Shown: positions 27,949 to 55,794 of the stretch, in pieces | Numbering within the stretch: the first letter of the stretch is position 1 | Layout of the letters: each line of letters begins with the position of its first letter | IMG/VR virus record: IMGVR_UViG_3300034374_009302 | Span: 1-55,794 of that record | Source: a virus | Taxonomy: Duplodnaviria; Caudoviricetes | Length of the DNA stretch: 55,794 nucleotides | Strand: one strand, 5' to 3' | Notes under the pieces: generated by a model | Databases searched by the model: none | Told to the model about the DNA's origin: nothing | Seen by the model: the letters and a program-made list of their open reading frames with translations, nothing else | Translations under genes and position numbers: made by a program

Positions 27949-29859
27949 TTATTTATAATCACTTAATTTTATTTTTTGTGTACCAATATCGACAACATAC
28001 TCATTGTTTTCAATGAATACTTTATAATCAACGGGTACTTGAACAGTGTTTCCACTACTATCTTTTTCTTCTCTGTAACTAGCAATAAGAATCTCTCCGT
28101 CCTTTTCCCAAATCGCATTCTTAACTAGTTCAGGTGCAGCTTCCTTAACGGCATCTACTGTTAATTCTAAAGTTCCTTCCTCATCAAAATCTATACCTTC
28201 TTCTTTCCCTTGACCTGTAATTGCATCCCAAGCACTACTTAGTCCAGAGGTCAAACCATTGGCAGCATCTTTTAAAAGTGTCCAAACATCGCCAACACCA
28301 TATCCTTTTGGGTTACCTGAAGCCCAAGCTAATAATTTTGATAATGCCGACTTTTCAAAGGTACCTACAATTGGAATTGCCCATTCAAATTCACCATCGG
28401 CAAATGTTTCTTTCAAATTTCTACCAGTTTTAACAATGAATTCTTCAATGAAACTTTCAAATTCTTCTTGAGATTCGGCTTCCGCATTTGGGTATGGAGC
28501 ATCTAAACCAAAAGAGGTGAATATTTTATTAATACCTAATTGAATATTTAATGACGACGCTAATGCTTGACCTGCATCGTAAATGACATTGGCCATAATA
28601 CTACCGTATTCCGCATATATTAAACTTACCATTGCATATGATAGAACTGCAGCTTTAGATGATGCTGAACTATTTCTTACGGCAATTTTATATAATTTAG
28701 AAAATTTAGCCCATTGACCTGTAATAAGATATTGTTTTAAATCTTCAGGCCAAACAACCTTAATCCATTTGGCACCTTTTTTCATATTAGAAGTTGTCGG
28801 TGTTGTACCTCCAATCCAATTTAACATTTGTTTTCTAAATGGAATAATATTTTTTATATTTTCACCTATTTCAACTCTTGGAATTATTTGTCCAAAAAAA
28901 CGTTTACCTAAATCATATATGTTAGAAGCAAAATTCGATGGGTCCTCTCTTCTTATTTCTCTAAAAATCTTAAAGGTGTCTTTATCAGAATTTTGAATAA
29001 CATTTTTTAATCTACTATCAATATCTAACTCCATTAAAGCTTTGGCAGCACCCTTATTTGCTTGCATCTCAAGTAGATTCAATTCTCTACTAATCGCTAC
29101 AGAATATGCATCTATTAATTCTTGAGCCTTTACAGGGTCAGTAATAGTATCCATATCGTTAGCAAATTGTTCACTTAATGCAATCATTCTTGCCTTTATT
29201 TTTTCAGTATCTTTAAATAAAGCCCTATAAAAATCACCAAACCATGTTTTACCACCTTTTGCGTTCGCGGCTTTGGCTAATTTTGAAATATTTAATTTTA
29301 TATAATCAGCGGAGTCTGCTAAATCACCCAATGACGTTTTTCTAAAAAATCTTCTTAGTGAGTCTTCAACAAACTTAGGTAGTGGGAGGTCAGAACCGCC
29401 TTGCATGAATTCTATAAATTCATCTGCAGTATTATACTCATCCACAATTCTGGCTAAATCCGAAACATCTGTTCCCGCAAGAATTTCAGCAATACTTTCC
29501 ATTAAAACTGCATCTATTTCAGGAACACCCTTACCTGCTAACTCTCTAAATACATATTTTAATGTTTCATCACTAAACTCATCTAAATTTGCAACAAATG
29601 AATCTAAACTATCAATATTTTTTAATTCCTTCTTAATAATGGAGTTAGGAGATTTTTTACCCGCAATGAATACATCATCAAACACTTTAGGGTCAATTGT
29701 TTGATATAATTTATTAGACTTAAATTTTCCAAATAATGACGTTAAAATATCATCTACAGCACCAGTTGATGCTTCACTAATAACATCCTTATTATAAGGT
29801 GTTACTTGAAATCCCATCAATTCTTTAATTCTAATATTTTCTTTTAATAGAGCGTCCAT
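27949..29859 (-). CDS. Large helical late-type protein with a hydrophobic segment
   Basis: 636 aa; leader MDALLKENIRIKELMG; AAVLSYAMVSLIYAEYGSIMANVIY; TATTTAT at 29872-29878. Confidence 0.7.
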   Translation of the reverse strand: MDALLKENIRIKELMGFQVTPYNKDVISEASTGAVDDILTSLFGKFKSNKLYQTIDPKVFDDVFIAGKKSPNSIIKKELKNIDSLDSFVANLDEFSDETLKYVFRELAGKGVPEIDAVLMESIAEILAGTDVSDLARIVDEYNTADEFIEFMQGGSDLPLPKFVEDSLRRFFRKTSLGDLADSADYIKLNISKLAKAANAKGGKTWFGDFYRALFKDTEKIKARMIALSEQFANDMDTITDPVKAQELIDAYSVAISRELNLLEMQANKGAAKALMELDIDSRLKNVIQNSDKDTFKIFREIRREDPSNFASNIYDLGKRFFGQIIPRVEIGENIKNIIPFRKQMLNWIGGTTPTTSNMKKGAKWIKVVWPEDLKQYLITGQWAKFSKLYKIAVRNSSASSKAAVLSYAMVSLIYAEYGSIMANVIYDAGQALASSLNIQLGINKIFTSFGLDAPYPNAEAESQEEFESFIEEFIVKTGRNLKETFADGEFEWAIPIVGTFEKSALSKLLAWASGNPKGYGVGDVWTLLKDAANGLTSGLSSAWDAITGQGKEEGIDFDEEGTLELTVDAVKEAAPELVKNAIWEKDGEILIASYREEKDSSGNTVQVPVDYKVFIENNEYVVDIGTQKIKLSDYK

Positions 29860-33392: not shown

Positions 33393-34031
33393 ATGAAAAT
33401 AACTTCAACAAACTTCGACAACGTTTACTTAATTGAGGAGGACGTTCATTTCGATGACCGAGGCTTTTTTATGGAAACATGGAATGAAATGTCTTATTCT
33501 GCAAAAGGTCTAATCAATGATTTACCTGGCGAGATGGCAGCCAAAGATGATGGTACAATGTTCAATACCTATTTTGTTCAGGATAACCTGTCTCAATCAA
33601 AACAAGGGGTTTTCAGAGGACTTCATTACCAAACAGGTCTACATGGTCAATCCAAATTAGTTAGAGTCTTACGTGGGGCGGTAGTGGATTTCATCGTTGA
33701 CTTAAGAGAGAAGTCAGACACCTACGGCAAGTTCGATTACTTCCTATTAAATGAATGGAATAAAAAATCTTTGTTTATCCCTCCGTATTTTGCTCACGGT
33801 TTCTTATCTTTGGAGGACGATACGATATTCACCTATAAGTGTGGAAACTATTACGACAAAACATCTGAGGGTAGTATTAATTACTCAGACCCTATCATCA
33901 GACACGTAAAAGATAATGACAGCACCATTGTGGATATCATATCAAGTTACATTCCTTATATTAATGAGGATAGTTTGAATATATCATATAAAGATAAACA
34001 CGCACCTAAATTCTTAAAACGTAAATACTGA
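33393..34031 (+). CDS. rmlC: dTDP-4-dehydrorhamnose 3,5-epimerase
   Basis: DDRGFFMETW, FVQDNLS.S..GV.RGLHYQ, QSKLV, D..VDLR, P..FAHGF, YKC.NYY. Confidence 0.92.
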   Translation: MKITSTNFDNVYLIEEDVHFDDRGFFMETWNEMSYSAKGLINDLPGEMAAKDDGTMFNTYFVQDNLSQSKQGVFRGLHYQTGLHGQSKLVRVLRGAVVDFIVDLREKSDTYGKFDYFLLNEWNKKSLFIPPYFAHGFLSLEDDTIFTYKCGNYYDKTSEGSINYSDPIIRHVKDNDSTIVDIISSYIPYINEDSLNISYKDKHAPKFLKRKY

Positions 34032-35889: not shown

Positions 35890-36279
35890 ATGACAGTTAT
35901 TTCACCAAAGACCATCGGAACCGACTACAAAGAGAACAAGAAACTTGGACGTTTTATTCGTCAACAACGTTTCAACGTTAAGGACGAGGGTGGTTTGTCA
36001 GAAATAGACTTTCGTATTACCTATATCAAGCCTCACGATACTTGGGTTGGTGAAATCAAAGTCAATATCGTAGCAGCAGGTAAACTGAAGAGATGTTATT
36101 GGTATTCAACCAACGAGTCACTTTCATTAAAAGAGTATGGTTCTCGCACTTCATCTCGTAACCGCAATGAAGAAATCAGAAGAATGGCACGTGCAGAGTT
36201 GAGTAGTTTCCTGAAATACTTCGGTGTTAAAGGTTACAATATCACTGTAGGGACAATCAAAGTCGTAGATTCACTATAG
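35890..36279 (+). CDS. Basic hypothetical protein
   Basis: 129 aa; own promoter TTTG(35835)-N20-TATCTTTG(35859). Confidence 0.75.
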   Translation: MTVISPKTIGTDYKENKKLGRFIRQQRFNVKDEGGLSEIDFRITYIKPHDTWVGEIKVNIVAAGKLKRCYWYSTNESLSLKEYGSRTSSRNRNEEIRRMARAELSSFLKYFGVKGYNITVGTIKVVDSL

Positions 36280-39200
36280 ACTCTTTCTCATAATAAAGGA
36301 CCTGAGAGCAAGACGGGCTAACTGACGGATTTCACTATTCAAGTTTTCTAAGGTTGGCTCGATTTCTTTTTTCTCCAAACTATCAAACGCCAATCCAACC
36401 ATAGTGTGTTTTGCTTTCTCAGCCAAATCATAAAGTTCTTCAAACTCTTCCTCGTTGTAGTTACCGTATTTTTCGTGTTGAATGAAACTTTTTAGATAAT
36501 CGGCACCTGAATAGATAAAGTTTGTAGATTCCAACATATTGATAACACCTGACATCCTTAGAGCTTCAAAGAAATCATAAATATTCTGATTAGGTTTACC
36601 CAAAACTGATTGGACACCTTCCCAATCTTTCCAATGGTAATTTGCACCTTCAGTCATCTCCTTCTCTTTGATGGTTGTAACCACCTCAGGGTACACAGAA
36701 CCAACGTTCTCTTCTTCTTTACCCTCGTAGTCCACCACCTTTAATAAGTGTCTAAAAGCGTTTAGAATACCCGCTCTCTTATCATTGGTGTCAACCACAG
36801 TCCATGGTTTGGCTTCCTTTGTTTGTTTTAATACCTTGTTTTTATACTCAGTATACTTATCCCACTTATCAATAGACTTCTCATCATTCGGTGAGAACTT
36901 CCAATACTTAAGTGGTGACGCCTTTCTAAGTTCAAATCTTTTTTTCTGAGTTTCAGGTGTAATACTTAACCAGAACTTTACTAACTCAATACCCTTATCC
37001 AATAGGGATTGTTCAAACTGATTTACATTCTCCATAAAATCCAAATATTCCTCCTGAGACGAATAACCCATTACTGGTTCAACAATACCTCTGTTGTACC
37101 AACTCCTATCGAAGAAGTTAATCTTTCCTGGCTGGATTTCTTTTTCATAACGACCAAACCAATCCTTTCTCTCCTCAGGGGTTGGAATACCCAATGCAAT
37201 AACATTAAAATACTTAGGGTCCAAGTATTCTGTCATTTTTTTGATGGTACTTCCCTTACCTGCTGAATCTCTACCTTCAAAAACTACTGCTATGGCTTTA
37301 CCTGTTTTCTTCACGTATTCTTGTAGTTTTAATAACTCAACCTGAAGTGGTAATATCTCTTTCTTAAATTGTTTTCTACCAATCTTAGACTTCTCAGGTT
37401 CTTCACCACCATATAAAAATTCATCTTCCACGTCGAAGTCATCGTTAGGGTCTTGTTCTGTTCTTTTTGATAAAGAATCCACGTAGTTTTCAATATAATC
37501 CTTAACATTTTTATCCTTATCACCCCCTTTAAATAATTTACGGTCTAAGTTCCTTAAAAATAAATCTGTAATGTCATCGTCACTCAATTCATCTAATAAA
37601 CTGTTAAGTAATTCAATATCTATATGACTATCAACTAATTTGTTAGTTAAATCCTCTTTTGTTTGTTCGGTTAAAGATTGAATGTAATTTTGAACTTCAG
37701 GTCTATCACCATATAAATCTAAAACTCTTTTAACAAATCTATCAGGGTTTTTTCTAATATATTGTACCAAGAATGGATTTAAGTTTGAACCTCTATCACC
37801 AAATAAGTTCATAATTTCCACATCTCTTGAATCATCACCCTCTTTACCCTTTTTACTTAACTTGGCCTTTGTTGTATAGAGTTGTTTTTGGTTTGTATTA
37901 GATAACTCTTTTAATTTTTCTAATATAGCTTTAGAATTTTCAACCTCAATACGTCCACTTTCAATTGCACGTATATCTCCAATAATTGCTTGATTAATAA
38001 AATCTAATTTATTTTCTTTATTGATTGGCTTCACTCCTTTTAATAATTCAACGAAATAATCAATTTCATCACCATCTTTTACTATTCGTCTGACTCTACC
38101 AATCACATCACCTGATTTGTTTTTGATTGATAATGCAACACTATTATGGCTTAAATCATAGATTGAACGACCTCTTTTTGTTGTGTCAGTGCGTCTTCTG
38201 TCTGTTCTGGTGTATTGAGGGAATTGAACCAATAATTTACTTGACGGTACCCCTCCCAAATTTTTAACATAAAGTCTTCCTTGAGAATTTACCGAAAAAT
38301 TTTCAGTGCTTGACATTATGTGATTAATAATATCACTTTTTTTGTATTGATATATAATGATTTCATTCAGGTTTCCTTCAGTTGCAAATAAGAACCAATC
38401 AATGGTATCAAATGAATCATCAGAAGTGTAAATTTTTTCTACTATATCTTTCACCCCTTTCTTATCAAAGTGAAGGTATAGTCTATTCAAAATTTGACTA
38501 ATTGCCGGTGAAGTAAACTTCAAATCATTACCACTGGGTCTCACACTCGGTAAATCACGGATTAAAGACTTTATCAATGAGGTGCCTTCACCTTTAACAT
38601 GTTTCTGAACCGCTTTTGTGATACCACCAATCGATTGTGAGCCTTCAGGACTAAATGATTTATTAAACTTGACTGATATATTCTGACCCTCAGAAGGACC
38701 GGTTATAATCTTCACATCAGTTTTATCAGCATTACCCTGATTCTCATTACCCTCAACATTACCCCCAAAAATACCAGCAATCAAACCTTCAAAGGTTTTA
38801 CCTCTGGTTCCTGCAGAATCATAGTTGATAATAACATCATCATACCATTGAATAAAACGTTGTTGAGTTTCAGGTTTGGTCTTTTTAAGTTTTTCAGTTT
38901 TATCAACACCAGGTAATTTATAAACTCCTGACTCACCCAAAGGTTGTGGCCATGTTTCAATGATACCTTCTTCATAGTAAGTTGATAATGCCTGTTTCAT
39001 TGCTGCAGATGTACCCTGAGCAGTTGCGTTGAATGGGGAACTTCTACCGATAGACTTCCCATATTGTTTTTCCAACTCATTATCTTCCTGCTCTTTGAGG
39101 CTCATACTCTTCTTTTTGTAGTCTGAATACAACATCCACAAATCTTCAGTAGATACCAAGCTAAGACCGCGACCATTTTCCCAATCCACACTTATAATGA

Positions 39201-39330
39201 GTCCGTCTTCTTCAAAAGGGTCTTTTGTAATTTTTTCAACTACACCTCTCAGACCTGGAGACATACCAGACTCACCTGCCATACTCACTAAAACTATTTG
39301 GTCACCTTCTTTTACCTCTGGATTAAGCAT
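36274..39330 (-). CDS. ppk2: Multidomain protein: DUF4314-like + PD-(D/E)XK-like + polyphosphate kinase 2 + DUF5049-like
   Basis: PPK2 motifs LQVELLKLQ, FEGRDSAGKG, FDRSWYNR..VE.VMG, KFWLSI, WKFSP.D, PWTVV..NDK (about 36720-37380). The other domains are recalled patterns and are less certain. Confidence 0.88.
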   Translation of the reverse strand: MLNPEVKEGDQIVLVSMAGESGMSPGLRGVVEKITKDPFEEDGLIISVDWENGRGLSLVSTEDLWMLYSDYKKKSMSLKEQEDNELEKQYGKSIGRSSPFNATAQGTSAAMKQALSTYYEEGIIETWPQPLGESGVYKLPGVDKTEKLKKTKPETQQRFIQWYDDVIINYDSAGTRGKTFEGLIAGIFGGNVEGNENQGNADKTDVKIITGPSEGQNISVKFNKSFSPEGSQSIGGITKAVQKHVKGEGTSLIKSLIRDLPSVRPSGNDLKFTSPAISQILNRLYLHFDKKGVKDIVEKIYTSDDSFDTIDWFLFATEGNLNEIIIYQYKKSDIINHIMSSTENFSVNSQGRLYVKNLGGVPSSKLLVQFPQYTRTDRRRTDTTKRGRSIYDLSHNSVALSIKNKSGDVIGRVRRIVKDGDEIDYFVELLKGVKPINKENKLDFINQAIIGDIRAIESGRIEVENSKAILEKLKELSNTNQKQLYTTKAKLSKKGKEGDDSRDVEIMNLFGDRGSNLNPFLVQYIRKNPDRFVKRVLDLYGDRPEVQNYIQSLTEQTKEDLTNKLVDSHIDIELLNSLLDELSDDDITDLFLRNLDRKLFKGGDKDKNVKDYIENYVDSLSKRTEQDPNDDFDVEDEFLYGGEEPEKSKIGRKQFKKEILPLQVELLKLQEYVKKTGKAIAVVFEGRDSAGKGSTIKKMTEYLDPKYFNVIALGIPTPEERKDWFGRYEKEIQPGKINFFDRSWYNRGIVEPVMGYSSQEEYLDFMENVNQFEQSLLDKGIELVKFWLSITPETQKKRFELRKASPLKYWKFSPNDEKSIDKWDKYTEYKNKVLKQTKEAKPWTVVDTNDKRAGILNAFRHLLKVVDYEGKEEENVGSVYPEVVTTIKEKEMTEGANYHWKDWEGVQSVLGKPNQNIYDFFEALRMSGVINMLESTNFIYSGADYLKSFIQHEKYGNYNEEEFEELYDLAEKAKHTMVGLAFDSLEKKEIEPTLENLNSEIRQLARLALRSFIMRKSL

Positions 39331-39390: not shown

Positions 39391-40071
39391 ATGCAATACG
39401 TAATAACTGAAGAGCAATACAGAAGAGTCCTAACAGAGAACTTCTTCAAAAGAACGGAAACTCGTTTGAAAAATGGTTACAATGAACTTAAAAATGTAAT
39501 CAATTCTGTCGCTCAACAAATGAAAATGTCGTTCAGGTTCTTACTTACCTATGGTGCTGGTATCAACGGTATTTTTGAGATGGTTAAAAACAGCATGGGT
39601 AAGTTATCGATGGATATCGGTGATGCAAATATGAACTACTTAATCCTATCAGCTATCAGTTTGGTATTCTTTGGTTATAGTGACTACAGAAAAATCTATA
39701 AAAGAGTTAAGAGTGAGGGATTAGAAGACCCATTCAAAGTGGCGCTTCAGGAAACTTTAAGTATTAAAGAAAGATTACAGGTAATCTTAAATGATATTTT
39801 AAAGGACCCAATCTACACCGCAATCGATATCTTAGCCTACACACACTTATTATTTGTCTTACCTCTTGCGGAATTAGAATTCTTTAACAATCCTGAACAG
39901 CTTGAAATCGCCGCTGAAGCGTTAATGAAATCTTCATTCATCACAGCGTCAGGGGTTGTCGTTAAAAAGTTTATCGAAAGTTTAAAAGAAAAACTTTCCT
40001 CCAAAAAGAGCGAGAGTGGTGTTGATGAACCTCAGGATGGACTCCAAGAACCTCAGTCAGATATCGCATAA
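39391..40071 (+). CDS. Membrane-associated late-type protein
   Basis: Leader MQYVITEEQYRRVLTE; several hydrophobic segments. Confidence 0.7.
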   Translation: MQYVITEEQYRRVLTENFFKRTETRLKNGYNELKNVINSVAQQMKMSFRFLLTYGAGINGIFEMVKNSMGKLSMDIGDANMNYLILSAISLVFFGYSDYRKIYKRVKSEGLEDPFKVALQETLSIKERLQVILNDILKDPIYTAIDILAYTHLLFVLPLAELEFFNNPEQLEIAAEALMKSSFITASGVVVKKFIESLKEKLSSKKSESGVDEPQDGLQEPQSDIA

Positions 40072-42470: not shown

Positions 42471-42923
42471 TCACAAAGCATTTAATCGGGTCGGTATGGA
42501 TAGTCCAAAACCAATTTCAGGAGTTTTTGAGATATTCAACATAAGTGATACGTCCACCATTCTGTTTTGTTGTGTCAACATCTTAAGGGGATGAACACGA
42601 ATTAAAAAGTCAGGATAAACCTCATATTCGTCAAAGGGTAAGAAATCTACAGAAACACCAGCACCCACATTAACACCATTATTAAAGAGGGCTAAGTTTA
42701 TCCCTAATGTTCGTGGAAAGTAGTTTTGGTATTGTGTTGAGTTATCTAACCTTCCATAGTCATATATTGTATACATTCCGAAGGGTGAGTATTCGGTGGT
42801 AAGGTTGATATTGTCAGTGCAAAGGACCACATCCTGAGTTGCAGGAATAAATCCGATGGTTGATGATTGTGAGTATCCTTTAATACCCAACAATAAAAGT
42901 AATGTTACTATTGTCCGTCTCAT
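42471..42923 (-). CDS. Secreted/outer-membrane beta-rich hypothetical protein
   Basis: Signal peptide MRRTIVTLLLLLGIKGYSQ; TATCTTTG at 42943-42950 (minus). Confidence 0.65.
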   Translation of the reverse strand: MRRTIVTLLLLLGIKGYSQSSTIGFIPATQDVVLCTDNINLTTEYSPFGMYTIYDYGRLDNSTQYQNYFPRTLGINLALFNNGVNVGAGVSVDFLPFDEYEVYPDFLIRVHPLKMLTQQNRMVDVSLMLNISKTPEIGFGLSIPTRLNAL

Positions 42924-44650: not shown

Positions 44651-45259
44651 ATGAGATGGGACACATTTATGAAGAAATTATTGTTTGGGGTATTACTATC
44701 CTTTGGTTCGCATTCCTTATATGGCAACACAGAAAAAACGGACACCATAAAGACTAATATTTTTGAGATTGTCTACTCAGAAACATTAGAACAACCTTTA
44801 TGGATTAGATATAAGGTTTTGTGTCCTATGGGAACCGAAAAACGTTCAGGATTAGACTTCTATACCAACGATAGTATCCATACCTCAGACGTTGAAGATT
44901 ATAAGGATAATGTTTACGACAGAGGTCACTTGGCACCTGCGGCTGCGTTTAGTTGTAATAGAGACACACTTAAACAGACCTTCACTTATTTAAACTGTGC
45001 ACTTCAACACGAAGGGTTAAACAGAGGTCCATGGAAAGACTTAGAAGAGATTGAAAGAGGGTTACCTTTATTTGTTGGTGAAGTGTGGGTGGAAATCTAT
45101 GTAAGGTTCGATGAAACCCCTAAAAAGGTAGATGGTGGTGCATCTATCCCAAAAGGATTTGACAAATTCATTTATTTTAACGATACTGTGGTTAAGTTCT
45201 CATTTCCAAATGTGGATGTAGCAGGAGAACCATGGGAAAATTTCAGAGTAATAGAATAA
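44651..45259 (+). CDS. Secreted DNA/RNA non-specific endonuclease (Serratia NucA/EndoG family)
   Basis: YDRGHLAPA, TF...N...Q...LNRG.W..LE; signal peptide from MKKLLFG (likely start 44669). Confidence 0.88.
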   Translation: MRWDTFMKKLLFGVLLSFGSHSLYGNTEKTDTIKTNIFEIVYSETLEQPLWIRYKVLCPMGTEKRSGLDFYTNDSIHTSDVEDYKDNVYDRGHLAPAAAFSCNRDTLKQTFTYLNCALQHEGLNRGPWKDLEEIERGLPLFVGEVWVEIYVRFDETPKKVDGGASIPKGFDKFIYFNDTVVKFSFPNVDVAGEPWENFRVIE

Positions 45260-46287: not shown

Positions 46288-48132
46288 ATGAACATTATCG
46301 GAATACACACTGGTCATGATGCGGCACTGTCTCTAATAAAAGACGGAAGACTTCATACCGCAATTTCAATGGAGCGTCTATCGAGAATCAAAAAAGATGC
46401 TGAGGTAACAAAAGAAAACTTTGATTTATTTTTAGATAAATGTGGTATTACATTGGATGATGTGGATGCCATTACTATGGCGTATTGGGACCATGGTTTT
46501 GCTAGATTCATGAGAATCTATTCCCCTGAAAATGAAAAATATCCTCTGAGTATATTTGGTAAATACGGTATGGAGTCGGCGGTAATGAACCATTTAGAAA
46601 GTTATTGGAGACCTGACCGAATGCCACAATATGTTAGTGGTGTGGGTTATACCTTACCTGACGTATTAGACCGATTAAGACCTCCAATGATATCAACATG
46701 GTCGACTTTTAGACCATTTATAAATTTAAATGTTACCATTGAAGGTTACGACCGAGTGATACCTGGTTATTTTATTGACCACCATATTGCACATGCAGCT
46801 TCAACGTTCTTCACCTCACCCTATAAAAAGGCAACAATATTCACGGCAGACGCCTCAATGTTTAATGATACATCATGTAGTGGTTATTTTTGGGGTATAG
46901 ATAATAGGTTAAATTACTTCAGAAACCCTGGATATATGTGGGGTAACTTTTATGATGTAGCAACTGAATTCTGTGGTTTAGGACCTGGCACTTTAAAAGC
47001 TGGAACACTAATGGGTTTATCTTCATATGGAACTGTTAGTAAGAACGCAAGGGACAATTGGGAGTTTTGGACTCGACCTCAACATGAAGTTGGGACTGAA
47101 GCCATTTATTATGATGATTGGTTGTTCTTACAAATCTCAGGAAAATATCCATACATAGGTGATATTCGAGAAGAGATAGATAATAACGAACCTGGTTCTT
47201 GGCATTATACCAGAGAATACCAATATGTTTACCCTAAAGAGATGGTGGACAGCAAAGAGGTTATGGATATTGCAGCAGACATTCAATACGTAACGGAAAG
47301 GTCTTTGGTTAAATATAGTGAGGATTTATATAACGAAAGTAAGACTATCAATGATGGCAACTTATGTTTGGCTGGTGGGACGTTCTTAAATTGTAACGCA
47401 AACTATAAAATCAAAACTGAAACAAGTTTTGATAATGTTCACATATTTCCAGCTTGTGGCGATGATGGTGTCACTGTTGGTTCTTCACTTTTTGCACTCC
47501 ATACTTTAATGGGTTATAAAAGAGAAGTTTATCAACCAAAAGATTTAATGTATTTAGGTTTTGAATACGACCATCAACCTGAAAGTCCATATAAATCAAT
47601 GGATTTAGATTTAAGATTTGTTGCTGAACAAATTGCTGAAGGTAAGATTGTTTGTTGGTTCCAGGGTCGTTCAGAGTTTGGTCCACGAGCATTAGGTAGT
47701 CGTTCATTCATCAGTGACCCTCGCAGGGTGGAGATGAAAGATATTCTTAATTCACGAGTCAAGTTTAGAGAGTGGTTTAGACCGTTCGCACCTGTAGTAT
47801 TAAAAGAACATAAGGAAGAATGGTTCGATATGGATTTTGATAGTCCGTTTATGTTACACACCGTTCCATGTAAAAGGCCAACTGAAATTCCTTCTGCCGT
47901 TCATATTGACAACACATCAAGGGTTCAGACAATTGATAAGTCTGACAATGAAAGATTCTACGATTTGATTTATAATTTCTATGAACTTACAGGTGTACCC
48001 GTAGTTATGAACACCTCATTAAACATTAAAGGACAACCGATTGTGGAAACACCTGAGGATGTGATGGAACTATTTGTGGAGTCCGATGTCGATGTGTTAG
48101 TAATAAACGATAAAGTATATTTGAAGGAGTAA
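46288..48132 (+). CDS. Carbamoyltransferase (NodU/CmcH/TobZ family)
   Basis: GHDAA, ERL.R.K, HH.AHA, G.LMGL..YG, LAGG..LNC..N, P..GD.G, FQGRSEFGPRALG.RS, KFREWFRPFAP, NTSLN..G.PIVE. Confidence 0.93.
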   Translation: MNIIGIHTGHDAALSLIKDGRLHTAISMERLSRIKKDAEVTKENFDLFLDKCGITLDDVDAITMAYWDHGFARFMRIYSPENEKYPLSIFGKYGMESAVMNHLESYWRPDRMPQYVSGVGYTLPDVLDRLRPPMISTWSTFRPFINLNVTIEGYDRVIPGYFIDHHIAHAASTFFTSPYKKATIFTADASMFNDTSCSGYFWGIDNRLNYFRNPGYMWGNFYDVATEFCGLGPGTLKAGTLMGLSSYGTVSKNARDNWEFWTRPQHEVGTEAIYYDDWLFLQISGKYPYIGDIREEIDNNEPGSWHYTREYQYVYPKEMVDSKEVMDIAADIQYVTERSLVKYSEDLYNESKTINDGNLCLAGGTFLNCNANYKIKTETSFDNVHIFPACGDDGVTVGSSLFALHTLMGYKREVYQPKDLMYLGFEYDHQPESPYKSMDLDLRFVAEQIAEGKIVCWFQGRSEFGPRALGSRSFISDPRRVEMKDILNSRVKFREWFRPFAPVVLKEHKEEWFDMDFDSPFMLHTVPCKRPTEIPSAVHIDNTSRVQTIDKSDNERFYDLIYNFYELTGVPVVMNTSLNIKGQPIVETPEDVMELFVESDVDVLVINDKVYLKE

Positions 48133-48770: not shown

Positions 48771-49342
48771 AATTATATTGGTTCGATAGTCACCACCTAA
48801 CTTATAAGCTAGTCCCTGTTCGTTGGGTGGTGTTTTTATTAGTATTTTTGGGAGTTTCAATATTCTCAATAGGTTATAAAATTAATTCACCCACTGAATT
48901 TGAAGACCTTACCAAATATGAACAGGAACTATTAATATTATCTATTAAGGATACTATCCACAACTTTAATGAGGATAAATTAATTGACCTTATGAAACAG
49001 TTGAATATTAAGTTTCCACACATAGTTTTAGCTCAATCTAAGATTGAAACAGGTCATTACTCTTCTCGTATTTTTAGAGAAAATCATAACCTATTTGGTA
49101 TGAAAGAAGCCAGAACGAGAATCAAAACCGCAAAGGGAACACAATACTCTCACGCTTATTATGCGAATTGGAGGGAGAGTGTTTATGATTATGCGTTTTA
49201 CCAATGTCGATATTTGGGTAGAATTACCGATGAAGAAGAATACCTAACATATCTTTCTCAGAGTTATGCCGAGGACCCTAATTATATCTCAAAGATTAGG
49301 AAGCTAATAAAAGACGAAGATTTAAGAAGTAAGTTCGAATGA
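48767..49342 (+). CDS. Membrane-anchored glucosaminidase-domain (GH73-like) peptidoglycan hydrolase
   Basis: N-terminal TM helix; AQ..IETG, NHNLFGMK, Y..W.ESV.DY, YAEDP.Y..K. Confidence 0.82.
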   Translation: MKLYWFDSHHLTYKLVPVRWVVFLLVFLGVSIFSIGYKINSPTEFEDLTKYEQELLILSIKDTIHNFNEDKLIDLMKQLNIKFPHIVLAQSKIETGHYSSRIFRENHNLFGMKEARTRIKTAKGTQYSHAYYANWRESVYDYAFYQCRYLGRITDEEEYLTYLSQSYAEDPNYISKIRKLIKDEDLRSKFE

Positions 49343-51015
49343 TAATAATGGGATTTTTACACGGTCATGATGCCGGTGCGACGTTAATAATAGATGGAGA
49401 GATTGTTGTCTCAATTTCTGAAGAAAGATTAAATAGGAAAAAGAAGAATATTGCTTCGTATTTGAAATACCCGCCCGTTCAATCGATGCAGTATTGTGTA
49501 AGTTATGCGGGTATTACATTAGAGGATGTAGACCTGTTTGTTTATAACGAAACTGACCGAAGTATCGACCCCATTCATTTTTTATCTTACACATTTGGAC
49601 TTGACCCTGAAAAATTCAAATACTTAACTCATCACGATGCCCACATCTATTCCACTTACTTAACTTCAAACTTTAAAGAAACAAATGTGGTCATTGCCGA
49701 TGGTGCGGGTGAAGATTTAATTAAGGGTAAACGTGGGTATAATTACTTTGAAAACCGTGGGTATAATTTAGCCGACACATCTGACTTAGACCATAACTTT
49801 ACCGAAGGTTGGACCATATCTTTTATGAATGGACAAGACCATATGGACACAAATAAGAAATGGTTAAAGACACTTAAAAAACCATGGGATTATATGGATG
49901 AAGCATCCATCGGTCTTATGTATGATATTGCTGCGTGGCAATTGGTTTCAAACCATAAAAATTGGCCAAGTGCGGGTAAGGTAATGGGTTTAGCGTCTTA
50001 TGCTAATAAAAAATGGGTAAACCAACAAGAACGAAACTACTATATCGATGGTGAAGATTTGGTAATCCCACATAGACAATTACATTCAGATGTAAATAAA
50101 GACTCAGACTTTCAGGACAAAGCTAATGTTGCTGGTGTTTACCAAAGAGAGCAAGAGGAAACAACAATGTTCCTAATCGAAAAATCAAAGAAACTTACAG
50201 ACGTAGAAAACCTATGTGTTGCCGGTGGCTCATTTTTGAACTGTAATACAAACTACAACATCCTAAAATCAGGGTTATATAAGAATGTTCATTTATTTCC
50301 ACCTTTGGATGACTCAGGGGTATCTTTAGGTTGTGCATTGTGGGGAGCATTCAAATACGATAAATTAAACAGAAAAGACTTTTTCAATCCATATTTGGGT
50401 AGACCATATTCCGATATTGAAATTTTCAATGTTATATCTCAAAATGATAAGGTGAGGTATGAAGAGTATAATAACGATACTCTTCTAACTAAAAAGGTTG
50501 CTGAATTATTAAACGAGGATAAGGTTATTGGTTGGTATCAGGGAGGTGCTGAGATTGGTCCGAGAGCGTTAGGTAACAGAAGTATTTTAGCATCACCAAG
50601 ACCTGATTGGATGAGAGACCACATTAACAATAACGTTAAGTTAAGAGAATGGTATAGACCATTCGCACCTGCAGTCTTATTTGAAAGACAGTCTGAGATT
50701 TTTGATTTGGATTACTTCTCACCATACATGTTGGTAACGGCTCAGGTTAATGAAGAATGGAGGGATAAGATTCCAGCGGTGACTCATCACGACAACACTG
50801 CCAGGTACCAGTCGGTTACCGAACAAACAAACAGTAAATTCTACAACCTAATTAAGGAGTTTGACAATCTGACAGGTATCCCTGTTTTGTTAAACACCAG
50901 CTTCAACGGTCCAACGGAACCAATAGTTGAAACACCTGAGGATGCATTAAAATCATTTTTGGAATTGGATATTGATATTTTAGTGATGGACAATTTTGTA
51001 ATTAGCAAAAAATGA
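49339..51015 (+). CDS. Carbamoyltransferase (NodU/CmcH/TobZ family), second paralog
   Basis: GHDAG, EERL.R.K, HH.AH, DG.G, AGKVMGLA.Y, AGG..LNC..N, GPRALGNRS, KLREWYRPFAP, NTSFN...PIVE. Confidence 0.93.
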   Translation: MIIMGFLHGHDAGATLIIDGEIVVSISEERLNRKKKNIASYLKYPPVQSMQYCVSYAGITLEDVDLFVYNETDRSIDPIHFLSYTFGLDPEKFKYLTHHDAHIYSTYLTSNFKETNVVIADGAGEDLIKGKRGYNYFENRGYNLADTSDLDHNFTEGWTISFMNGQDHMDTNKKWLKTLKKPWDYMDEASIGLMYDIAAWQLVSNHKNWPSAGKVMGLASYANKKWVNQQERNYYIDGEDLVIPHRQLHSDVNKDSDFQDKANVAGVYQREQEETTMFLIEKSKKLTDVENLCVAGGSFLNCNTNYNILKSGLYKNVHLFPPLDDSGVSLGCALWGAFKYDKLNRKDFFNPYLGRPYSDIEIFNVISQNDKVRYEEYNNDTLLTKKVAELLNEDKVIGWYQGGAEIGPRALGNRSILASPRPDWMRDHINNNVKLREWYRPFAPAVLFERQSEIFDLDYFSPYMLVTAQVNEEWRDKIPAVTHHDNTARYQSVTEQTNSKFYNLIKEFDNLTGIPVLLNTSFNGPTEPIVETPEDALKSFLELDIDILVMDNFVISKK

Positions 51016-51028
51016 TTATCTTTGTCCT

Positions 51029-51394
51029 ATGACAACGAGAGAATGGACAAAAATACTGAAAGAAAACCCAAAAATTTCGACCATCGAAGTTAGTGGTGAA
51101 TTTGTAAAAGGTAAAGTATCCATCACTCGTCATAGAATACTTGAAAAAGAGAAAAGTGTTTATTCTTACGGTTCTAACGAAGTTATTACGGTAAAGGAGA
51201 GTGAGATTGATGTTACCTTTGACGGTCAGGTAAAATCTTCGATGGGTAATTGGTACCCACCAAAGGATTACAATAAAAGACAATTGAACAACTGGTTCAG
51301 GGCTAGTAAGGATATTAACAGAGAACTTAAAATGAGATTAAAACTCATCGGAGGTTCATCAGAATATAAAATAAAGAAAATCACATGTTTGTAG
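51029..51394 (+). CDS. Basic hypothetical protein
   Basis: 121 aa; TATCTTTG at 51017-51024. Confidence 0.72.
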   Translation: MTTREWTKILKENPKISTIEVSGEFVKGKVSITRHRILEKEKSVYSYGSNEVITVKESEIDVTFDGQVKSSMGNWYPPKDYNKRQLNNWFRASKDINRELKMRLKLIGGSSEYKIKKITCL

Positions 51395-52087: not shown

Positions 52088-52777
52088 ATGAAAATCACGT
52101 TCATATCAGATACGCACACAAAACATCATCAGGTAACCTCACAGTTGCCAGGTGGTGATTTGTTGGTCCATGCTGGTGACTTTTCTTCGCGAGGTTATGA
52201 ACATGAGATAGATGGATTCTTTGATTGGTTCAACGGTTTGGATAACTACACCAATAAGATTGTCATCGCTGGTAACCACGACCTTATGTTTGAGGACGAC
52301 CCAATGTTTGCTAAAGACATTATAAGTCACTATCCTAATGTCACTTACCTTCAGGACGACATCGAAGTCATCGGTGAGGATTACTCATCATCAGTAAAAG
52401 TATACGGTTCTCCGTGGCAACCTGAGTTTTATAATTGGGCATTTAATTTACCACGAATGGGTTGGGAACTTCAACAAAAATGGGATGATATTCCTCATAA
52501 CATGGACATCGTGGTCACTCACGGTCCCGCGTGGGGTCATTTGGACACCGTTGTTGGACAATCTATGAACTTGGGGTGTGAGTTGTTGGCTGAGAGACTA
52601 AAGGTCGTTAAACCAAAGATACACGTGTGTGGACACATCCACAGTGGGTACGGTTATAAGTTCCATGAAGGGACACATTACTTCAACGCTGCGGTACTCG
52701 GTGAGGACTATGTATTCACACAGAAACCGATGACAGTGGAGTGGGACCCTGAAACTAATGAAATAGAATTTGTTTAA
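52088..52777 (+). CDS. Calcineurin-like metallophosphoesterase
   Basis: SDTH, HAGD, AGNHD, THGP, GHIH; TATCTTTG at 52066-52073. Confidence 0.92.
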   Translation: MKITFISDTHTKHHQVTSQLPGGDLLVHAGDFSSRGYEHEIDGFFDWFNGLDNYTNKIVIAGNHDLMFEDDPMFAKDIISHYPNVTYLQDDIEVIGEDYSSSVKVYGSPWQPEFYNWAFNLPRMGWELQQKWDDIPHNMDIVVTHGPAWGHLDTVVGQSMNLGCELLAERLKVVKPKIHVCGHIHSGYGYKFHEGTHYFNAAVLGEDYVFTQKPMTVEWDPETNEIEFV

Positions 52778-52815: not shown

Positions 52816-53439
52816 ATGAAGTATAAATTAGAAATGTATGGGTGGGAGGTTGAAGCGACTGGTCACTCACTAACAGATGAACAAGTTAAATCTATCCAAG
52901 ATTTAATGGAAACCAATGGTGCTGACGAACTATGGGAAGTTCGTCATGATATCGAAATGGAAGGTATAGTGGATGACCTTTATAATCCTGACCTTTACCA
53001 CGTATCTCGTGGATTGGACAATAGTGGTCTTTGGTTTTCACTTAAAGATGACAAGGATAATGAAGTTTTAAGCTTCGAACCGTCAGATATGGAAGATATC
53101 TACGAAATGTTAGGTGATTCTGCGGATGATATCCCTTATGAAGGTTATTTAGCAATACCAGGTGAGGGTGATAAGTCTGAGGTAGATAATATACTAGCAA
53201 TATTTGATGAAAATAAAGGTGGTATTTGTGATTTTGAAATGTTCGAATCAGATGAAGTACCAACGGCAAAAGATTTCTGTATCCAACACGGGGATATAGG
53301 TACACCTGATGGTGATTGGGATTTTATATCTAAAGTATTTTACAAAGGTAAGGAGTTGGAAGTTTACGACCATTTAGACAATCGTGGTAAAGCTGCGACT
53401 GTTGAAATATACCGTAAAGATGGTTCAACAATTAGTTAA
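52816..53439 (+). CDS. Acidic hypothetical protein
   Basis: 207-aa ORF. Confidence 0.75.
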   Translation: MKYKLEMYGWEVEATGHSLTDEQVKSIQDLMETNGADELWEVRHDIEMEGIVDDLYNPDLYHVSRGLDNSGLWFSLKDDKDNEVLSFEPSDMEDIYEMLGDSADDIPYEGYLAIPGEGDKSEVDNILAIFDENKGGICDFEMFESDEVPTAKDFCIQHGDIGTPDGDWDFISKVFYKGKELEVYDHLDNRGKAATVEIYRKDGSTIS

Positions 53440-53698
53440 AGGGGATATATTAGAGGAAGGTCCGAAGGTTAAGAAGATTCACATCAATCAACACCATATT
53501 CGGTCCAATAAGACGAAGGAAACGGACCTTCCTGTAATAACCATTAAGATTGGTAGTAAAAACTACTACTGTAACGAAATAGAAATAAACGGTCCATCGA
53601 AACTATCTTACTGTGGGAGTGGTGACCAAAAACCCCTAATCAGTTGTGGGGCAAGAGTAATTTTGGAAACGACTGCTGAAGTAAAAATAATTGATTAA
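53420..53698 (+). CDS. Phage hypothetical protein
   Basis: IHINQH.IR.N...PVIT.K...N.Y..E..I.GP...Y...KPL.SCGARV..ET; ATG 53420 preferred over GTG 53384. Confidence 0.72.
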   Translation: MVQQLVKGDILEEGPKVKKIHINQHHIRSNKTKETDLPVITIKIGSKNYYCNEIEINGPSKLSYCGSGDQKPLISCGARVILETTAEVKIID

Positions 53699-54111
53699 TG
53701 AAAAAGATGTTAGTGGCCCTCGCACTTGGGTTTGGATTAAGTGTATTTGGACAACAGGAGATTAGAACTTCATTTCAAACCACTGAAATTGAAACCTCAG
53801 TGATGACTAAAAATTATTCTACAGGTGACTGGAATTTTTCTGACAATAACGATTTACAACCTTACGACGCGTTTTGGACATTCCGTTTAGGTGAGAATGG
53901 TAAGGGTGGTTATATATCTTCAGGTGATATTATTTATTCCGTATTTGATTGGGAAACCACAGAAAATGGGGTATTAGTTAATTTTTACGCACATAAAAGA
54001 AATGAGGATGGGACAGTAATTGTGGTGGTTAGACCTGACGGTAAAAATTCAATGACCTTCTTCTTACCTGAATCAAATATTTCATTAACTTTCCATGAAC
54101 CTGTGAGATAA
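53698..54111 (+). CDS. Secreted hypothetical protein
   Basis: Signal peptide MKKMLVALALGFGLSVFGQ. Confidence 0.72.
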   Translation: MKKMLVALALGFGLSVFGQQEIRTSFQTTEIETSVMTKNYSTGDWNFSDNNDLQPYDAFWTFRLGENGKGGYISSGDIIYSVFDWETTENGVLVNFYAHKRNEDGTVIVVVRPDGKNSMTFFLPESNISLTFHEPVR

Positions 54112-54112
54112 T

Positions 54113-54220
54113 ATGTGGCCGGATATTGTTATACAAATTGGATGGGTGATGGGTATGTTGACTTACCTATATTTTGAAGTGGACCTTTACCTATACAACA
54201 AAAATAAGAACAATGATTAA
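54113..54220 (+). CDS. Tiny membrane protein (35 aa)
   Basis: Read by hand: MWPDIVIQIGWVMGMLTYLYFEVDLYLYNKNKNND*. Confidence 0.5.
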   Translation: MWPDIVIQIGWVMGMLTYLYFEVDLYLYNKNKNND

Positions 54221-54434
54221 CGAATTTTTAGCCAGTTACAAAGCCCTGAAAGGGACTTTACTGAGAACTTTAATATACACAATGGGTCACTTTATTATTG
54301 CTGCGGCTTGTGTGATGTATTTTACAGGTGCAGATTTTCAATCGGCAATAACAGATGCGGTTGTTGAACCTATCCTCAACGGTGTTTGGTATTTTGTTTT
54401 GGATAGGTTATGGATTACTAAAAAAGAGGAATAA
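54213..54434 (+). CDS. DUF2061-like small membrane protein
   Basis: LLRTLIYTMGHFIIA....YFTG.....A...A.VEP..N.VWYF..DR.W; ATG 54213 preferred. Confidence 0.65.
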   Translation: MINEFLASYKALKGTLLRTLIYTMGHFIIAAACVMYFTGADFQSAITDAVVEPILNGVWYFVLDRLWITKKEE

Positions 54435-54595
54435 TGTTAGATTTAATTTGGTTATTGTTAACAGGTATTGCTGCAGCTACAGCTGGTGCAATTATAGTAG
54501 AGGTGTTCCGTTATGGTGCAAACCTTGAGCGTAGGAATAAAAGAACCGATTTGTGGGGAAGACCAAATAACCACATGAAAGATGATATGGATTAG
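54434..54595 (+). CDS. Tiny membrane protein (53 aa)
   Basis: Read by hand: MLDLIWLLLTGIAAATAGAIIVEVFRYGAN...DMD*; TAATG-coupled. Confidence 0.6.
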   Translation: MLDLIWLLLTGIAAATAGAIIVEVFRYGANLERRNKRTDLWGRPNNHMKDDMD

Positions 54596-54597
54596 TT

Positions 54598-54684
54598 ATG
54601 ATTGAGTTTCCGGTAATGGTATTGTTATTGACTTGTTTTTTAACAGGTTTGTTTATAATCTTAAAAGATAGAAGAAAAGAATGA
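54598..54684 (+). CDS. Tiny membrane protein (28 aa)
   Basis: Read by hand: MIEFPVMVLLLTCFLTGLFIILKDRRKE*; ATGA-coupled to the next gene. Confidence 0.55.
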   Translation: MIEFPVMVLLLTCFLTGLFIILKDRRKE

Positions 54685-54920
54685 GATTGTTAGGTTTTCT
54701 TGGTATTTTGCTTATGTTTGTAATTCAATGTAGTATTGATGAGAACTTTACCGTGAATGAAAAAACTGTTGACTTATCTGAGTTGGATAGTGTTGATTGT
54801 GTGGTATGGTGGGAAGTTCAGAACGACACCTTAAAGATTTGGACTGAGGAAGATGAAAGAAAAAGTGACATTGACCGTTTGAATTACATTCGTTCATTAG
54901 ACACAACAGGATGGGAATAA
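54681..54920 (+). CDS. Small putative lipoprotein
   Basis: MRLLGFLGILLMFVIQC signal with a Cys. Confidence 0.6.
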   Translation: MRLLGFLGILLMFVIQCSIDENFTVNEKTVDLSELDSVDCVVWWEVQNDTLKIWTEEDERKSDIDRLNYIRSLDTTGWE

Positions 54921-54921
54921 G

Positions 54922-55041
54922 ATGAAAGATAAAGTATTAAGATTTAACAACGACTGGAAAGGTCGTAGACTATACGAAGAGAATAAAAAGAAAGAGTCTG
55001 TTAATAAGACTAAAACCTTTAACACCAAAGAGAATGGGTAA
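54922..55041 (+). CDS. Cassette ORF 1 (39 aa) ending TFNTKENG
   Basis: Read by hand: MKDKVLRFNNDWKGRRLYEENKKKESVNKTKTFNTKENG*. Confidence 0.55.
   Translation: MKDKVLRFNNDWKGRRLYEENKKKESVNKTKTFNTKENG
55015..55033 (+). repeat. 19-bp gene-junction repeat, copy 1
   Basis: ACCTTTAACACCAAAGAGA followed directly by ATG. Confidence 0.95.
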
Positions 55042-55183
55042 ATACTTAAAGCAAGGATTTGTAAGAGCGTTAGAGTGGCAACTTAATAGAGAAGAAATCT
55101 CCTACTCAAAATGGGTTGACCTAATGGAGGAGGAGTGTATTAAGAACTACAAAGAAGAAACCTTTAACACCAAAGAGAGATGA
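55034..55183 (+). CDS. Cassette ORF 2 (49 aa) ending TFNTKER
   Basis: Read by hand: MGKYLKQGFVRALEWQLNREEISYSKWVDLMEEECIKNYKEETFNTKER*. Confidence 0.65.
   Translation: MGKYLKQGFVRALEWQLNREEISYSKWVDLMEEECIKNYKEETFNTKER
55160..55178 (+). repeat. 19-bp gene-junction repeat, copy 2
   Basis: ACCTTTAACACCAAAGAGA followed by GATGA. Confidence 0.95.
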
Positions 55184-55374
55184 GTGATTGGACTTATGAG
55201 ATAATTGAAATGAGTAATAGTGACAGCGAGTGGTTTGTTAAAGCAAAAGATGGAGTGCCGTCTATATTGAAAATTAAGTTTCAGAAGGAGTGTGAATTAG
55301 ATAGAATCATCACCTACACTTTTAATGATGAACAAATTCTAAATACAACAACCTTTAACACCAAAGAGAAATGA
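55180..55374 (+). CDS. Cassette ORF 3 (64 aa) ending TFNTKEK
   Basis: In the ORF track; bounded by repeat copies 2 and 3. Confidence 0.7.
   Translation: MSDWTYEIIEMSNSDSEWFVKAKDGVPSILKIKFQKECELDRIITYTFNDEQILNTTTFNTKEK
55351..55369 (+). repeat. 19-bp gene-junction repeat, copy 3
   Basis: ACCTTTAACACCAAAGAGA followed by AATGA. Confidence 0.95.
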
Positions 55375-55655
55375 GTGAAGTAAATCCAAATTACAATCCA
55401 CAAGCAGATTTTGACAACTTTGGTGAAGAGATGGAACACATCGTTAAGACAACACCTAAAGAGGTGCTAAAAAAGGAGTGGGATAAAGTATTAGCAGAAT
55501 ATGGTACTGATACACACGACAAGATTCTATCTATGACTGGTGACTTTGTTCAGTCTAATCGTAGTGAAGGACAAACCTATGCTCATTATCACTATGATAT
55601 GATGGCAGACTTTGCTCTACATATATTAGAAACCTTTAACACCAAAGAGAGATGA
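55371..55655 (+). CDS. Cassette ORF 4 (94 aa) ending TFNTKER
   Basis: In the ORF track; bounded by repeat copies 3 and 4. Confidence 0.72.
   Translation: MSEVNPNYNPQADFDNFGEEMEHIVKTTPKEVLKKEWDKVLAEYGTDTHDKILSMTGDFVQSNRSEGQTYAHYHYDMMADFALHILETFNTKER
55632..55650 (+). repeat. 19-bp gene-junction repeat, copy 4
   Basis: ACCTTTAACACCAAAGAGA followed by GATGA. Confidence 0.95.
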
Positions 55656-55720
55656 AAGAAAAAGACACTGAGAAGCCCCTAGTGGTAATAGTTTACACCT
55701 TTAACACTAAAGAGAGATGA
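55652..55720 (+). CDS. Cassette ORF 5 (22 aa) ending TFNTKER
   Basis: Read by hand: MKEKDTEKPLVVIVYTFNTKER*. Confidence 0.55.
   Translation: MKEKDTEKPLVVIVYTFNTKER
55697..55715 (+). repeat. 19-bp gene-junction repeat, copy 5 (one synonymous change)
   Basis: ACCTTTAACACTAAAGAGA followed by GATGA. Confidence 0.93.
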
Positions 55721-55794
55721 AAACACCAATCTATATAACACGAACTTGGTTTAGAATATTTGGATACGGATTAAGTTGGACTAAACAACCAAGA
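55717..55794 (+). CDS. Cassette ORF 6 (partial; runs off the window)
   Basis: MKTPIYITRTWFRIFGYGLSWTKQPR..., open to the end of the window. Confidence 0.55.
   Translation, partial: MKTPIYITRTWFRIFGYGLSWTKQPR

Follow-up and report, generated by a model that had tools for sequence, protein, structure and literature searches.

What does a 19-base-pair (bp) word do when it closes one small phage gene and opens the next, in an array of genes that otherwise have nothing in common? The question is raised by the end of a 55,794-nucleotide (nt) stretch of tailed-virus DNA, IMG/VR record IMGVR_UViG_3300034374_009302 (hereafter the window, which is the entire record), where the 19-mer ACCTTTAACACCAAAGAGA occurs exactly at positions 55015, 55160, 55351 and 55632 and with a single mismatch (C12>T) at 55697, with spacings of 145, 191, 281 and 65 nt. 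Neither strand of the window holds a further match with up to three mismatches, and the five copies compare with 0.05 expected by chance, none of 100 shuffles reaching five. A preliminary description, made from the letters of this DNA alone, had placed the repeats at the ends of otherwise unrelated open reading frames (ORFs) of 39, 49, 64, 94 and 22 amino acids (aa), each repeat adjoining the next ATG, and had proposed a plug-in cassette system; positions, spacings and arrangement were all recovered here. We propose that the motif, followed by a purine and ATGA, is probably a stop-start gene-junction adaptor that also provides micro-homology for the exchange of cassettes among Flavobacteriaceae-type phages.

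A census of 194 copies with at most one mismatch, drawn from 127 loci and the window, ties the motif closely to the start codon behind it. The ATG begins exactly 1 nt after the motif in 182 copies (0 nt in four, 3 nt in one, no ATG in seven); the base preceding the ATG in these 182 is A in 114, G in 65 and T in three; A directly follows the ATG in 174 of 186 copies, and a frame-0 stop lies at offset 21 in 175 of the 194. In the window, the ATG follows copy 1 at 0 nt and copies 2-5 at 1 nt, the latter four with a stop-start overlap (ATGA). Stops are supplied in two of the three frames, by a TAA inside the motif (frame 2) and by the TGA that goes with ATGA (frame 0). Every adenine of the motif is 99-100% fixed, the variable positions being 1-3, 9 and 12. 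An ORF of at least 20 codons enters the motif in frame 0 in 91 of the 194 copies, in frame 1 in 26 and in frame 2 in 38, and 103 copies have no such frame-0 ORF upstream. What precedes the copies without an upstream ORF is a tRNA gene, a promoter-like direct repeat or a hairpin with a T-run, and at three loci the first three bases of the motif are the last three of a tRNA gene. In these cases the motif starts at 2602 in L004 (Arg-tct), 2240 in L093 (Met-cat) and 3856 in L126 (Met-cat), and its ACC doubles as the discriminator and CC of the tRNA 3' end. Mismatch profiles along the motif are alike in 132 copies in coding context and 130 in non-coding context. Because about half of the copies lack an upstream ORF and variation is equal in the two contexts, the shared C-terminal tail TFNTKE is a by-product, and the motif is a nucleotide-level signal linked to the next start codon, not a peptide. 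The preliminary description had called the repeat coding, which is true of all window copies but of only about half of the copies overall.

Comparison with close relatives, in which the 94-aa cassette is 98-99.7% identical in DNA, reveals what happens between the joints. In the 297-kb viral contig G006 (locus L133), homology to the window covers 54675-55033, up to the last base of copy 1, and resumes over 55350-55648 at 99.7%, with two other cassettes in between. L132 has the 94-aa cassette (98.1%) right behind the 49-aa one (94.7%) and lacks the 64-aa cassette exactly from motif to motif; in L134 the 94-aa cassette stands ahead of the 49-aa one, the reverse of the window order. Another cassette family, F22, lies on opposite sides of the 94-aa family (F00) in L131 and L132. 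Cassette content and order thus differ among close relatives, with breakpoints at the motif and repeat-bounded insertions and deletions (L132, L133, L134), in agreement with the plug-in cassettes of the preliminary description. The possibility, raised with it, that the cassettes are diverged tandem duplicates of one gene can be discarded: without the shared tail, their bodies have no mutual similarity (best blastp E = 1.5).

Gene order also breaks more often at motif junctions than elsewhere. Among pairs at least 80% identical, the next gene belonged to the same family at 12 of 92 motif junctions (13%) versus 339 of 551 plain ones (62%), and among all homologous pairs at 19 of 915 versus 1419 of 4857, the pairs being non-independent and the ORFs crudely called. 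Three contigs whose record names share a dataset prefix illustrate how the two sides of a motif can have different partners: L075 matches L049 on the upstream side (68/72; downstream 42/150) and L013 on the downstream side (142/150; upstream 23/72). Of the 144 exact copies, 33 stand no more than 150 nt from a true contig end, when 3.9 were expected (about 8-fold); assemblies break in this way where variants diverge. Within the motif, bases 1-3 agree more often between junctions with the same upstream family (0.69, background 0.55) and base 20 between junctions with the same downstream family (0.65 vs 0.52), with the same non-independence and crude calls; such linkage of each motif end to its own side is expected for crossovers inside the motif and hints at them. 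As read from these alignments, the motif marks the breakpoints where cassettes are swapped, lost and reordered between phages.

The window array itself, all on the plus strand, opens with a 39-aa ORF (54922..55041) that has no motif upstream, ends in TFNTKENG and reads at its 3' end through copy 1 (55015..55033, exact, ATG directly after); a homologue of this ORF precedes the array in L133, homology stopping at 55033. The 49-aa cassette of family F06 (55034..55183, ending TFNTKER) is found at DNA identities of 94.7% in L132, 97.6% in L010 and 87.7% in L134, before or after the 94-aa cassette depending on the relative. Copy 2 (55160..55178, exact) is followed by GATGA, the upstream stop overlapping the next start, and leads into the 64-aa cassette (55180..55374, ending TFNTKEK), which had no homologue in any fetched locus and no Pfam match. 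Copy 3 (55351..55369, exact, then AATGA) is where homology of the window to L132-L135 and L143 begins, at 55350; behind it stands the 94-aa cassette F00 (55371..55655, ending TFNTKER), which a protein search with the tail removed recovered in 15 other loci of two phage lineages and which gave no Pfam match. Homology to L133 and L134 ends at 55648-55650, in copy 4 (55632..55650, exact, then GATGA), and the 22-aa mini-ORF between copies 4 and 5 (55652..55720, ending TFNTKER) had no homologue among the fetched loci. The array ends with copy 5 (55697..55715, C12>T, then GATGA) and a sixth ORF (55717..55794) cut by the contig end 98 nt past the start of copy 5; its 55736-55794 part matches nt 1-59 of L127. 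The window cassettes could be assigned to no Pfam or PHROG family. Because the array of G006 is internal, with six copies within 1 kb, that of the window very probably continues beyond 55794.

Copy 5 and the first 14 nt of the ORF behind it match 16 loci at 94-97%. Over 55697-55730 the motif and 14 nt of an MKTP... start are common to the MKTPMQ family (L001, L007, L046 and L135 among the 16 loci), after which the sequences diverge, and this suggests that the last window junction may be a chimeric 5' end produced by a crossover just inside the gene. The only other trace of the motif in the window is a 12-nt exact match to its 5' part (ACCTTTAACACC) at 36234-36216 on the minus strand, about 40 nt past the stop of a 1018-aa ORF and not followed by an ATG, which represents a relic copy or else has arisen by chance.

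The motif is widespread among uncultured viruses: the exact 19-mer was found in at least 120 stretches of IMG/VR contigs, with 144 exact copies, a set in which motif conservation is ascertained since the stretches were found through the exact motif. Among 185,579 species genomes, the 19-mer followed by NATG occurs in just seven contigs, all from metagenome-assembled genomes (MAGs), which speaks against a host genomic element; four of the seven are labelled Bacteroidota and the other three are probably mis-binned phage. The motif is absent from 50,697 records of cultured or deposited phages, blastn of 53000-55794 against cultured phages gave no match, and a 37-nt query across one junction gave partial, chance-level matches only, in 25 cultured or deposited phage records. 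No description of the motif or of the TFNTKE tail was found in the literature searched, paper supplements lying outside the reach of that search. In G006, all six copies with up to two mismatches fall within 263.6-264.6 kb of the 297 kb, one array per genome; arrays are internal in this contig and in one of 212 kb.

Two phage lineages share the motif. The window has 36% G+C, both ends cut through ORFs and no terminal repeat (10-1999 nt). Among its products are a portal, a head protease and a large terminase that is T4-like, with Flavobacterium phage 'immuto' as its best cultured match at 27% identity. In G006, rated 99% complete, the terminase is 85% identical to that of the window and lies at a similar distance from the array. 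Given this 297-kb relative and its own completeness rating of 18%, the window is a fragment of a T4-like jumbo myovirus, distant from T4, whose host we infer to be of Flavobacteriaceae type. The second lineage (contigs L137-L145) carries the 94-aa cassette at about 92% DNA identity, in surroundings that comprise an Erf-like annealing protein and exonuclease VIII upstream of the array and a DnaB-like helicase downstream; the exonuclease family is present in 45 loci and the helicase family in 35. Phages of F. columnare and Riemerella have helicases 27% identical to this one, which was not found in G006 or G004. Between the terminases of this lineage and of the window, the match is limited to 39-40% over a stretch of about 80 residues. 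The second lineage also has genes resembling those for RusA, HNH and sigma factors. Both lineages share the motif and one cassette.

The preliminary description had noted that no recombinase is visible in the window. This is correct as far as the scan goes: of 50 window ORFs compared with PHROGs or Pfam, none matched a recombinase or integrase, the window covering about 18% of the genome. It does not extend to the relatives: a RecA/UvsX-like ORF is encoded by the jumbo-lineage contig G004 (50.8 bits; G006 has a weak match only), and the second lineage has Erf and the exonuclease. The only nuclease-type matches among the scanned window ORFs are an HNH endonuclease (25444-25932) and a nuclease-like ORF (44651-45259). 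Beside some arrays there are homing-endonuclease-like or HNH ORFs, one at L135 (1299-2747, 483 aa, phrog_314 match with E 8e-9) and two judged by sequence only (L136 3594-4271 and L144 605-1234).

Which genes stand behind the motif? A survey of 2570 crudely called ORFs in the fetched loci found it ahead of 180, including 69 of 691 ORFs of 30-60 aa and 91 of 776 of 60-100 aa, that is 160 of 1467 between 30 and 100 aa, versus none of 257 of at least 250 aa. The median length of the ORF downstream is 55 aa in the 194-copy census. Altogether 237 motif-preceded ORFs (median 58 aa) were grouped into 103 families, of which 65 have a single member and none of the 10 most frequent passed the Pfam cut-off; among the 223 complete motif-preceded ORFs, 54 have the shared tail at their own end as well. 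Conversely, 23 of the 25 most widespread families never have the motif, including families of 64-87 aa in the same operons. Being confined to one 1-kb array in G006 and absent from large genes and most widespread families, the motif is not a general translation signal.

Several other arrangements recur around the motif. In L018, L066, L116 and L119, and also in L035 and L089, it is followed by a 9-codon mini-ORF (MSRCTPHRK or similar), then a GCAAAT/ATTTGC hairpin and the ATG of an MKTPMQ-family gene, an order that looks like a leader-peptide arrangement. In the second lineage, non-coding elements abut the motif at a fixed distance, namely TAGGCGCA-N11-GGGCGCAA, a doubled CAAAGTGTAAA and GTAAGGnTATAACCTTAC hairpins (for example in L051, L065, L069 and L078; L057, L064 and L103; L027, L052 and L112), and these may be phage-specific promoters or operators.

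How could so short a word act? In the mechanism that we favour, the adaptor would end two of the three incoming frames, through the TAA in the motif and the TGA laid over the ATG, and would present an open, A-rich leader one base ahead of the ATG, so that a mini-gene with no promoter of its own, once placed behind it, would be translated, whether ribosomes reinitiate after termination or start from a 5' end that a promoter or tRNA processing has generated. The identical flanks of about 20-24 bp around each cassette would at the same time be micro-homology for insertion, deletion, permutation and swap, possibly handled by UvsX-type enzymes in the jumbo lineage and by Erf and the exonuclease in the second lineage, and the TFNTKE(K/R) tail would be a chance product of the adaptor whenever the upstream ORF enters frame 0. 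Starts behind the motif are indeed predicted to be more open than other starts of the same loci (unpaired probability 0.61 vs 0.53; minimum free energy -1.9 vs -4.1 kcal/mol, the controls including spurious ORFs), and in a series of decaying copies in one gene family the 3' half, CCAAAGAGA-purine-ATG, is retained longest. These observations suggest a two-part adaptor, in which the 3' half would serve initiation or reinitiation and the whole word shared homology.

Several points weigh against this proposal. Both translation enhancement and recombination at the motif are deduced from sequence comparison, and about 20 bp is short for UvsX-type recombination. The exactness of the motif is partly a matter of ascertainment: among 33 copies reached by protein search, and not through the motif, 16 are exact, four have one mismatch and 11 have two. 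The junction-pair and base-agreement counts carry the non-independence mentioned above, and the placing of junctions at gene borders could in part reflect selection on random joints. Closely packed window genes between 53420 and 54920 have no motif and, in one motif-preceded family, the leaders of some homologues are entirely unlike it, so that the motif is not required for expression or coupling. Finally, initiation in F. johnsoniae is favoured by adenines at -3, -6, -12 and -13 according to one study (PMC6847099), and the motif has only two of these four, those at -6 and -13; it carries G at -3 and, at -12, a C that most often varies to A.

The alternatives differ in how much of the evidence they leave aside. 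The motif might be nothing but a class-specific initiation or reinitiation leader, used by the Shine-Dalgarno-blind ribosome of Bacteroidia with S1 or a phage factor, in which case shuffling would be a side effect of the dispensability of these genes and the motif would not be its cause. The fixed 1-nt spacing to the ATG (182/194), the purine before and the A after it, the open and A-rich context, the late decay of the ATG-proximal 3' half and the presence of the motif at likely mRNA 5' ends, after tRNAs and promoter-like repeats, would all suit such a leader. We nevertheless consider it rather unlikely: the motif is missing from conserved genes of the same operons, small ones too, and from 99.7% of the genome of the complete relative, homology breakpoints fall on it, and the neighbours that go with its 5' end differ from those that go with its 3' end. 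Moreover, an enhancer of the Shine-Dalgarno or TURBS kind would pair with 16S rRNA beyond chance, and the best duplex of the motif is no better than that of shuffles (-13.0 vs -13.5 +/- 1.7 kcal/mol over 300 shuffles, 58% of which were as good or better), the 16S being that of one Flavobacteriales MAG (G003), which may not be the host. A transcription or RNA-processing signal, be it the target of an endoribonuclease, a site of boxA-like antitermination, or a promoter whose leaderless mRNA would begin with the purine that precedes the ATG, seems less likely again. That purine (179/182) would be well placed for a transcription start, a sigma-factor-like protein is encoded in the second lineage, and the preliminary description pointed to an 8-nt identity to E. 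coli rrn boxA; however, in 82 non-coding contexts no host-type -7 box lies within the motif or at a fixed distance from it (four scattered matches), a promoter for every 40-90-aa gene would be unneeded in arrays, and the occurrence of several different promoter-like repeats abutting the same motif fits a shared leader better than a promoter. The boxA link is not supported either, as CTTTAACA is absent from the three rrn leaders of G003 (with the same reservation about the host), which share a different conserved box. A structured RNA, another suggestion of that description, is likewise without support: the dyad CTTT-N6-AAAG which it had pointed out does exist but the best fold of the motif with its flanks reaches only -0.5 kcal/mol, position 3 varies without compensation at position 16, and 53000-55794 has no Rfam match at E up to 1.

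A dedicated integron-like or homing-like system, whose enzyme would recognise the 19-mer as a core site and move cassettes, possibly as circles, could produce arrays in which promoter-less ORFan cassettes, all in one orientation, are each flanked by the one site that two phage lineages have in common, and the homing-endonuclease-like and HNH ORFs beside some arrays could be read in its favour. We hold it to be improbable, given that no integrase or recombinase was found among the 50 window ORFs scanned, the arrays of the two lineages do not share a neighbouring enzyme family, and the site lacks inverted repeats and decays gradually across its copies instead of being intact or gone. It is also very hard to maintain that TFNTKE(K/R) is a functional C-terminal tag (a degron, targeting or packaging signal) that drives the conservation of the DNA, as the preliminary description had envisaged. 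Frame 0 is preferred (91 ORFs vs 38 and 26) and nearly a quarter of the complete motif-preceded ORFs (54/223) carry the tail too, but 103 of the 194 copies lie in no frame-0 ORF, some copies start on tRNA ends, coding and non-coding copies vary equally, synonymous sites are no less fixed than others, frequent variants alter the peptide (N>K, T>V/F/S), and tails drift freely in G006 (FFNTKER, FLNTEEK, SFNTKEK). An assembly artefact or chimera of the window contig, which the contig end 98 nt past the start of the last copy and the frequent breaking of contigs near the motif might evoke, is scarcely credible: independent viral contigs, at least 120 of them, and seven MAG contigs show the same layout, and arrays are internal in contigs of 212 and 297 kb. 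The adaptor with shared homology thus remains our preferred explanation.

Other features of the window deserve brief mention. It has a full-length transfer-messenger RNA (tmRNA) gene (20249-20645, +; Rfam RF00023, 90.5 bits, E 6e-34) with an unusual tag, read by ARAGORN as AKLQAVGLIRTEEVTVA before the stop. By eye, a TATTTATA-like box, which may be a late-promoter analogue, lies 15-25 nt before the ATG of mainly structural or large genes (e.g. 3513-5414, 27949-29859, 36274-39330 and 39391-40071), and a box of the Bacteroidota -7 type (consensus TAnnTTTG) lies at the same distance before others (e.g. 42471-42923, 51029-51394 and 52088-52777). Two Nol-like carbamoyltransferase genes (46288-48132, +, E 1e-116; 49339-51015, +, E 7e-115), a 670-aa ATP-dependent protease homologue (13388-15400, +, E 1e-243) and a dTDP-4-dehydrorhamnose epimerase-like gene (33393-34031) are also present.

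Many of the functions by which phages take over their hosts or counter host defences are found among accessory ORFans, whose movement is little understood beyond a few T4-type coliphages and vibriophages. Here, a tiny and exactly defined junction word tags mini-genes in at least 120 uncultured contigs, marks their exchange points, spans two lineages and accounts for the breaking of assemblies of these phages at the array locus. With it, viromes of Bacteroidota can be searched in a simple way for mobile phage mini-genes; it also offers a natural test case for gene expression after insertion in hosts whose ribosomes ignore Shine-Dalgarno sequences, and is a candidate portable expression adaptor for Flavobacterium genetics. 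It is tempting, if speculative, to go further and see in the 19-mer an exchange platform on which unrelated Flavobacteriaceae phage lineages would trade ready-to-express mini-genes, read by a specific recombination factor or acting as a new Shine-Dalgarno-independent ribosome-recruitment or reinitiation element of Bacteroidia. Such a platform would be the phage counterpart of an integron, built on a stop-start translational joint.

Integron arrays consist of cassettes bounded by attC sites, whose imperfect inverted repeats fold in single-stranded DNA, and are accompanied by an attI site and the gene of a tyrosine-recombinase integrase. The arrays described here resemble them in their small, unrelated, mostly promoter-less ORFs of one orientation, recurring boundary site and variable content and order, but no integrase accompanies the motif among the 50 scanned window ORFs (about 18% of the genome), the 19-mer has only a 4-bp dyad (-0.5 kcal/mol) in place of attC-like inverted repeats and overlaps stop and start codons, and the setting is that of lytic-type phage genomes. 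The mosaic joints of lambdoid phages arise by relaxed or short-homology recombination through Red/Erf/Rad52-like annealing proteins. The Erf-like and exonuclease genes directly upstream of the second-lineage arrays and the location of joints at gene borders are reminiscent of this process; here, however, every joint carries one conserved sequence and not an arbitrary patch of identity. As for expression, the motif shares with the Shine-Dalgarno-independent initiation of Bacteroidia, as described by Baez et al. 2019 (PMC6847099), an A-rich, weakly structured leader with A at -6 and -13, and the ribosomes of the inferred host group do not use Shine-Dalgarno pairing. That study describes graded single-nucleotide preferences instead of a fixed 19-nt word, favours A where the motif has G (-3) and C (-12), and most genes of the same phages do without the motif.

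The closest known system is that of the promoter early stem-loops (PeSLs) of T4-type phages, repeated regulatory cassettes of hyperplastic regions which lie upstream of ORFans and mediate modular shuffling; each consists of a sigma70-type early promoter, a stable terminator stem-loop and a Shine-Dalgarno sequence, is intergenic, and has been demonstrated to form mini-circles, according to the PeSL reports (Arbiol et al. 2010, PMC2839356; Comeau et al. 2014, PMC4122927). In behaviour the two agree, as both are short repeats clustered in variable regions immediately upstream of ORFans, both span from the upstream stop to the downstream start, both mark breakpoints of insertion, deletion and replacement between close relatives (the motif also of permutation), and the phage that bears the window array is itself a distant T4-like myovirus. 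Yet both defining parts of a PeSL as described there, the host-type promoter and the terminator stem-loop, are missing from the motif, which is 19-24 nt long, has by sequence no host-type promoter box and forms no stable hairpin (-0.5 kcal/mol). It also lies within the upstream coding frame in about half of its copies, whereas PeSLs are intergenic, and is confined to one small array per genome, versus about 50 PeSL sites. Finally, the motif is common, letter for letter, to the unrelated phage lineage that encodes Erf and the exonuclease.

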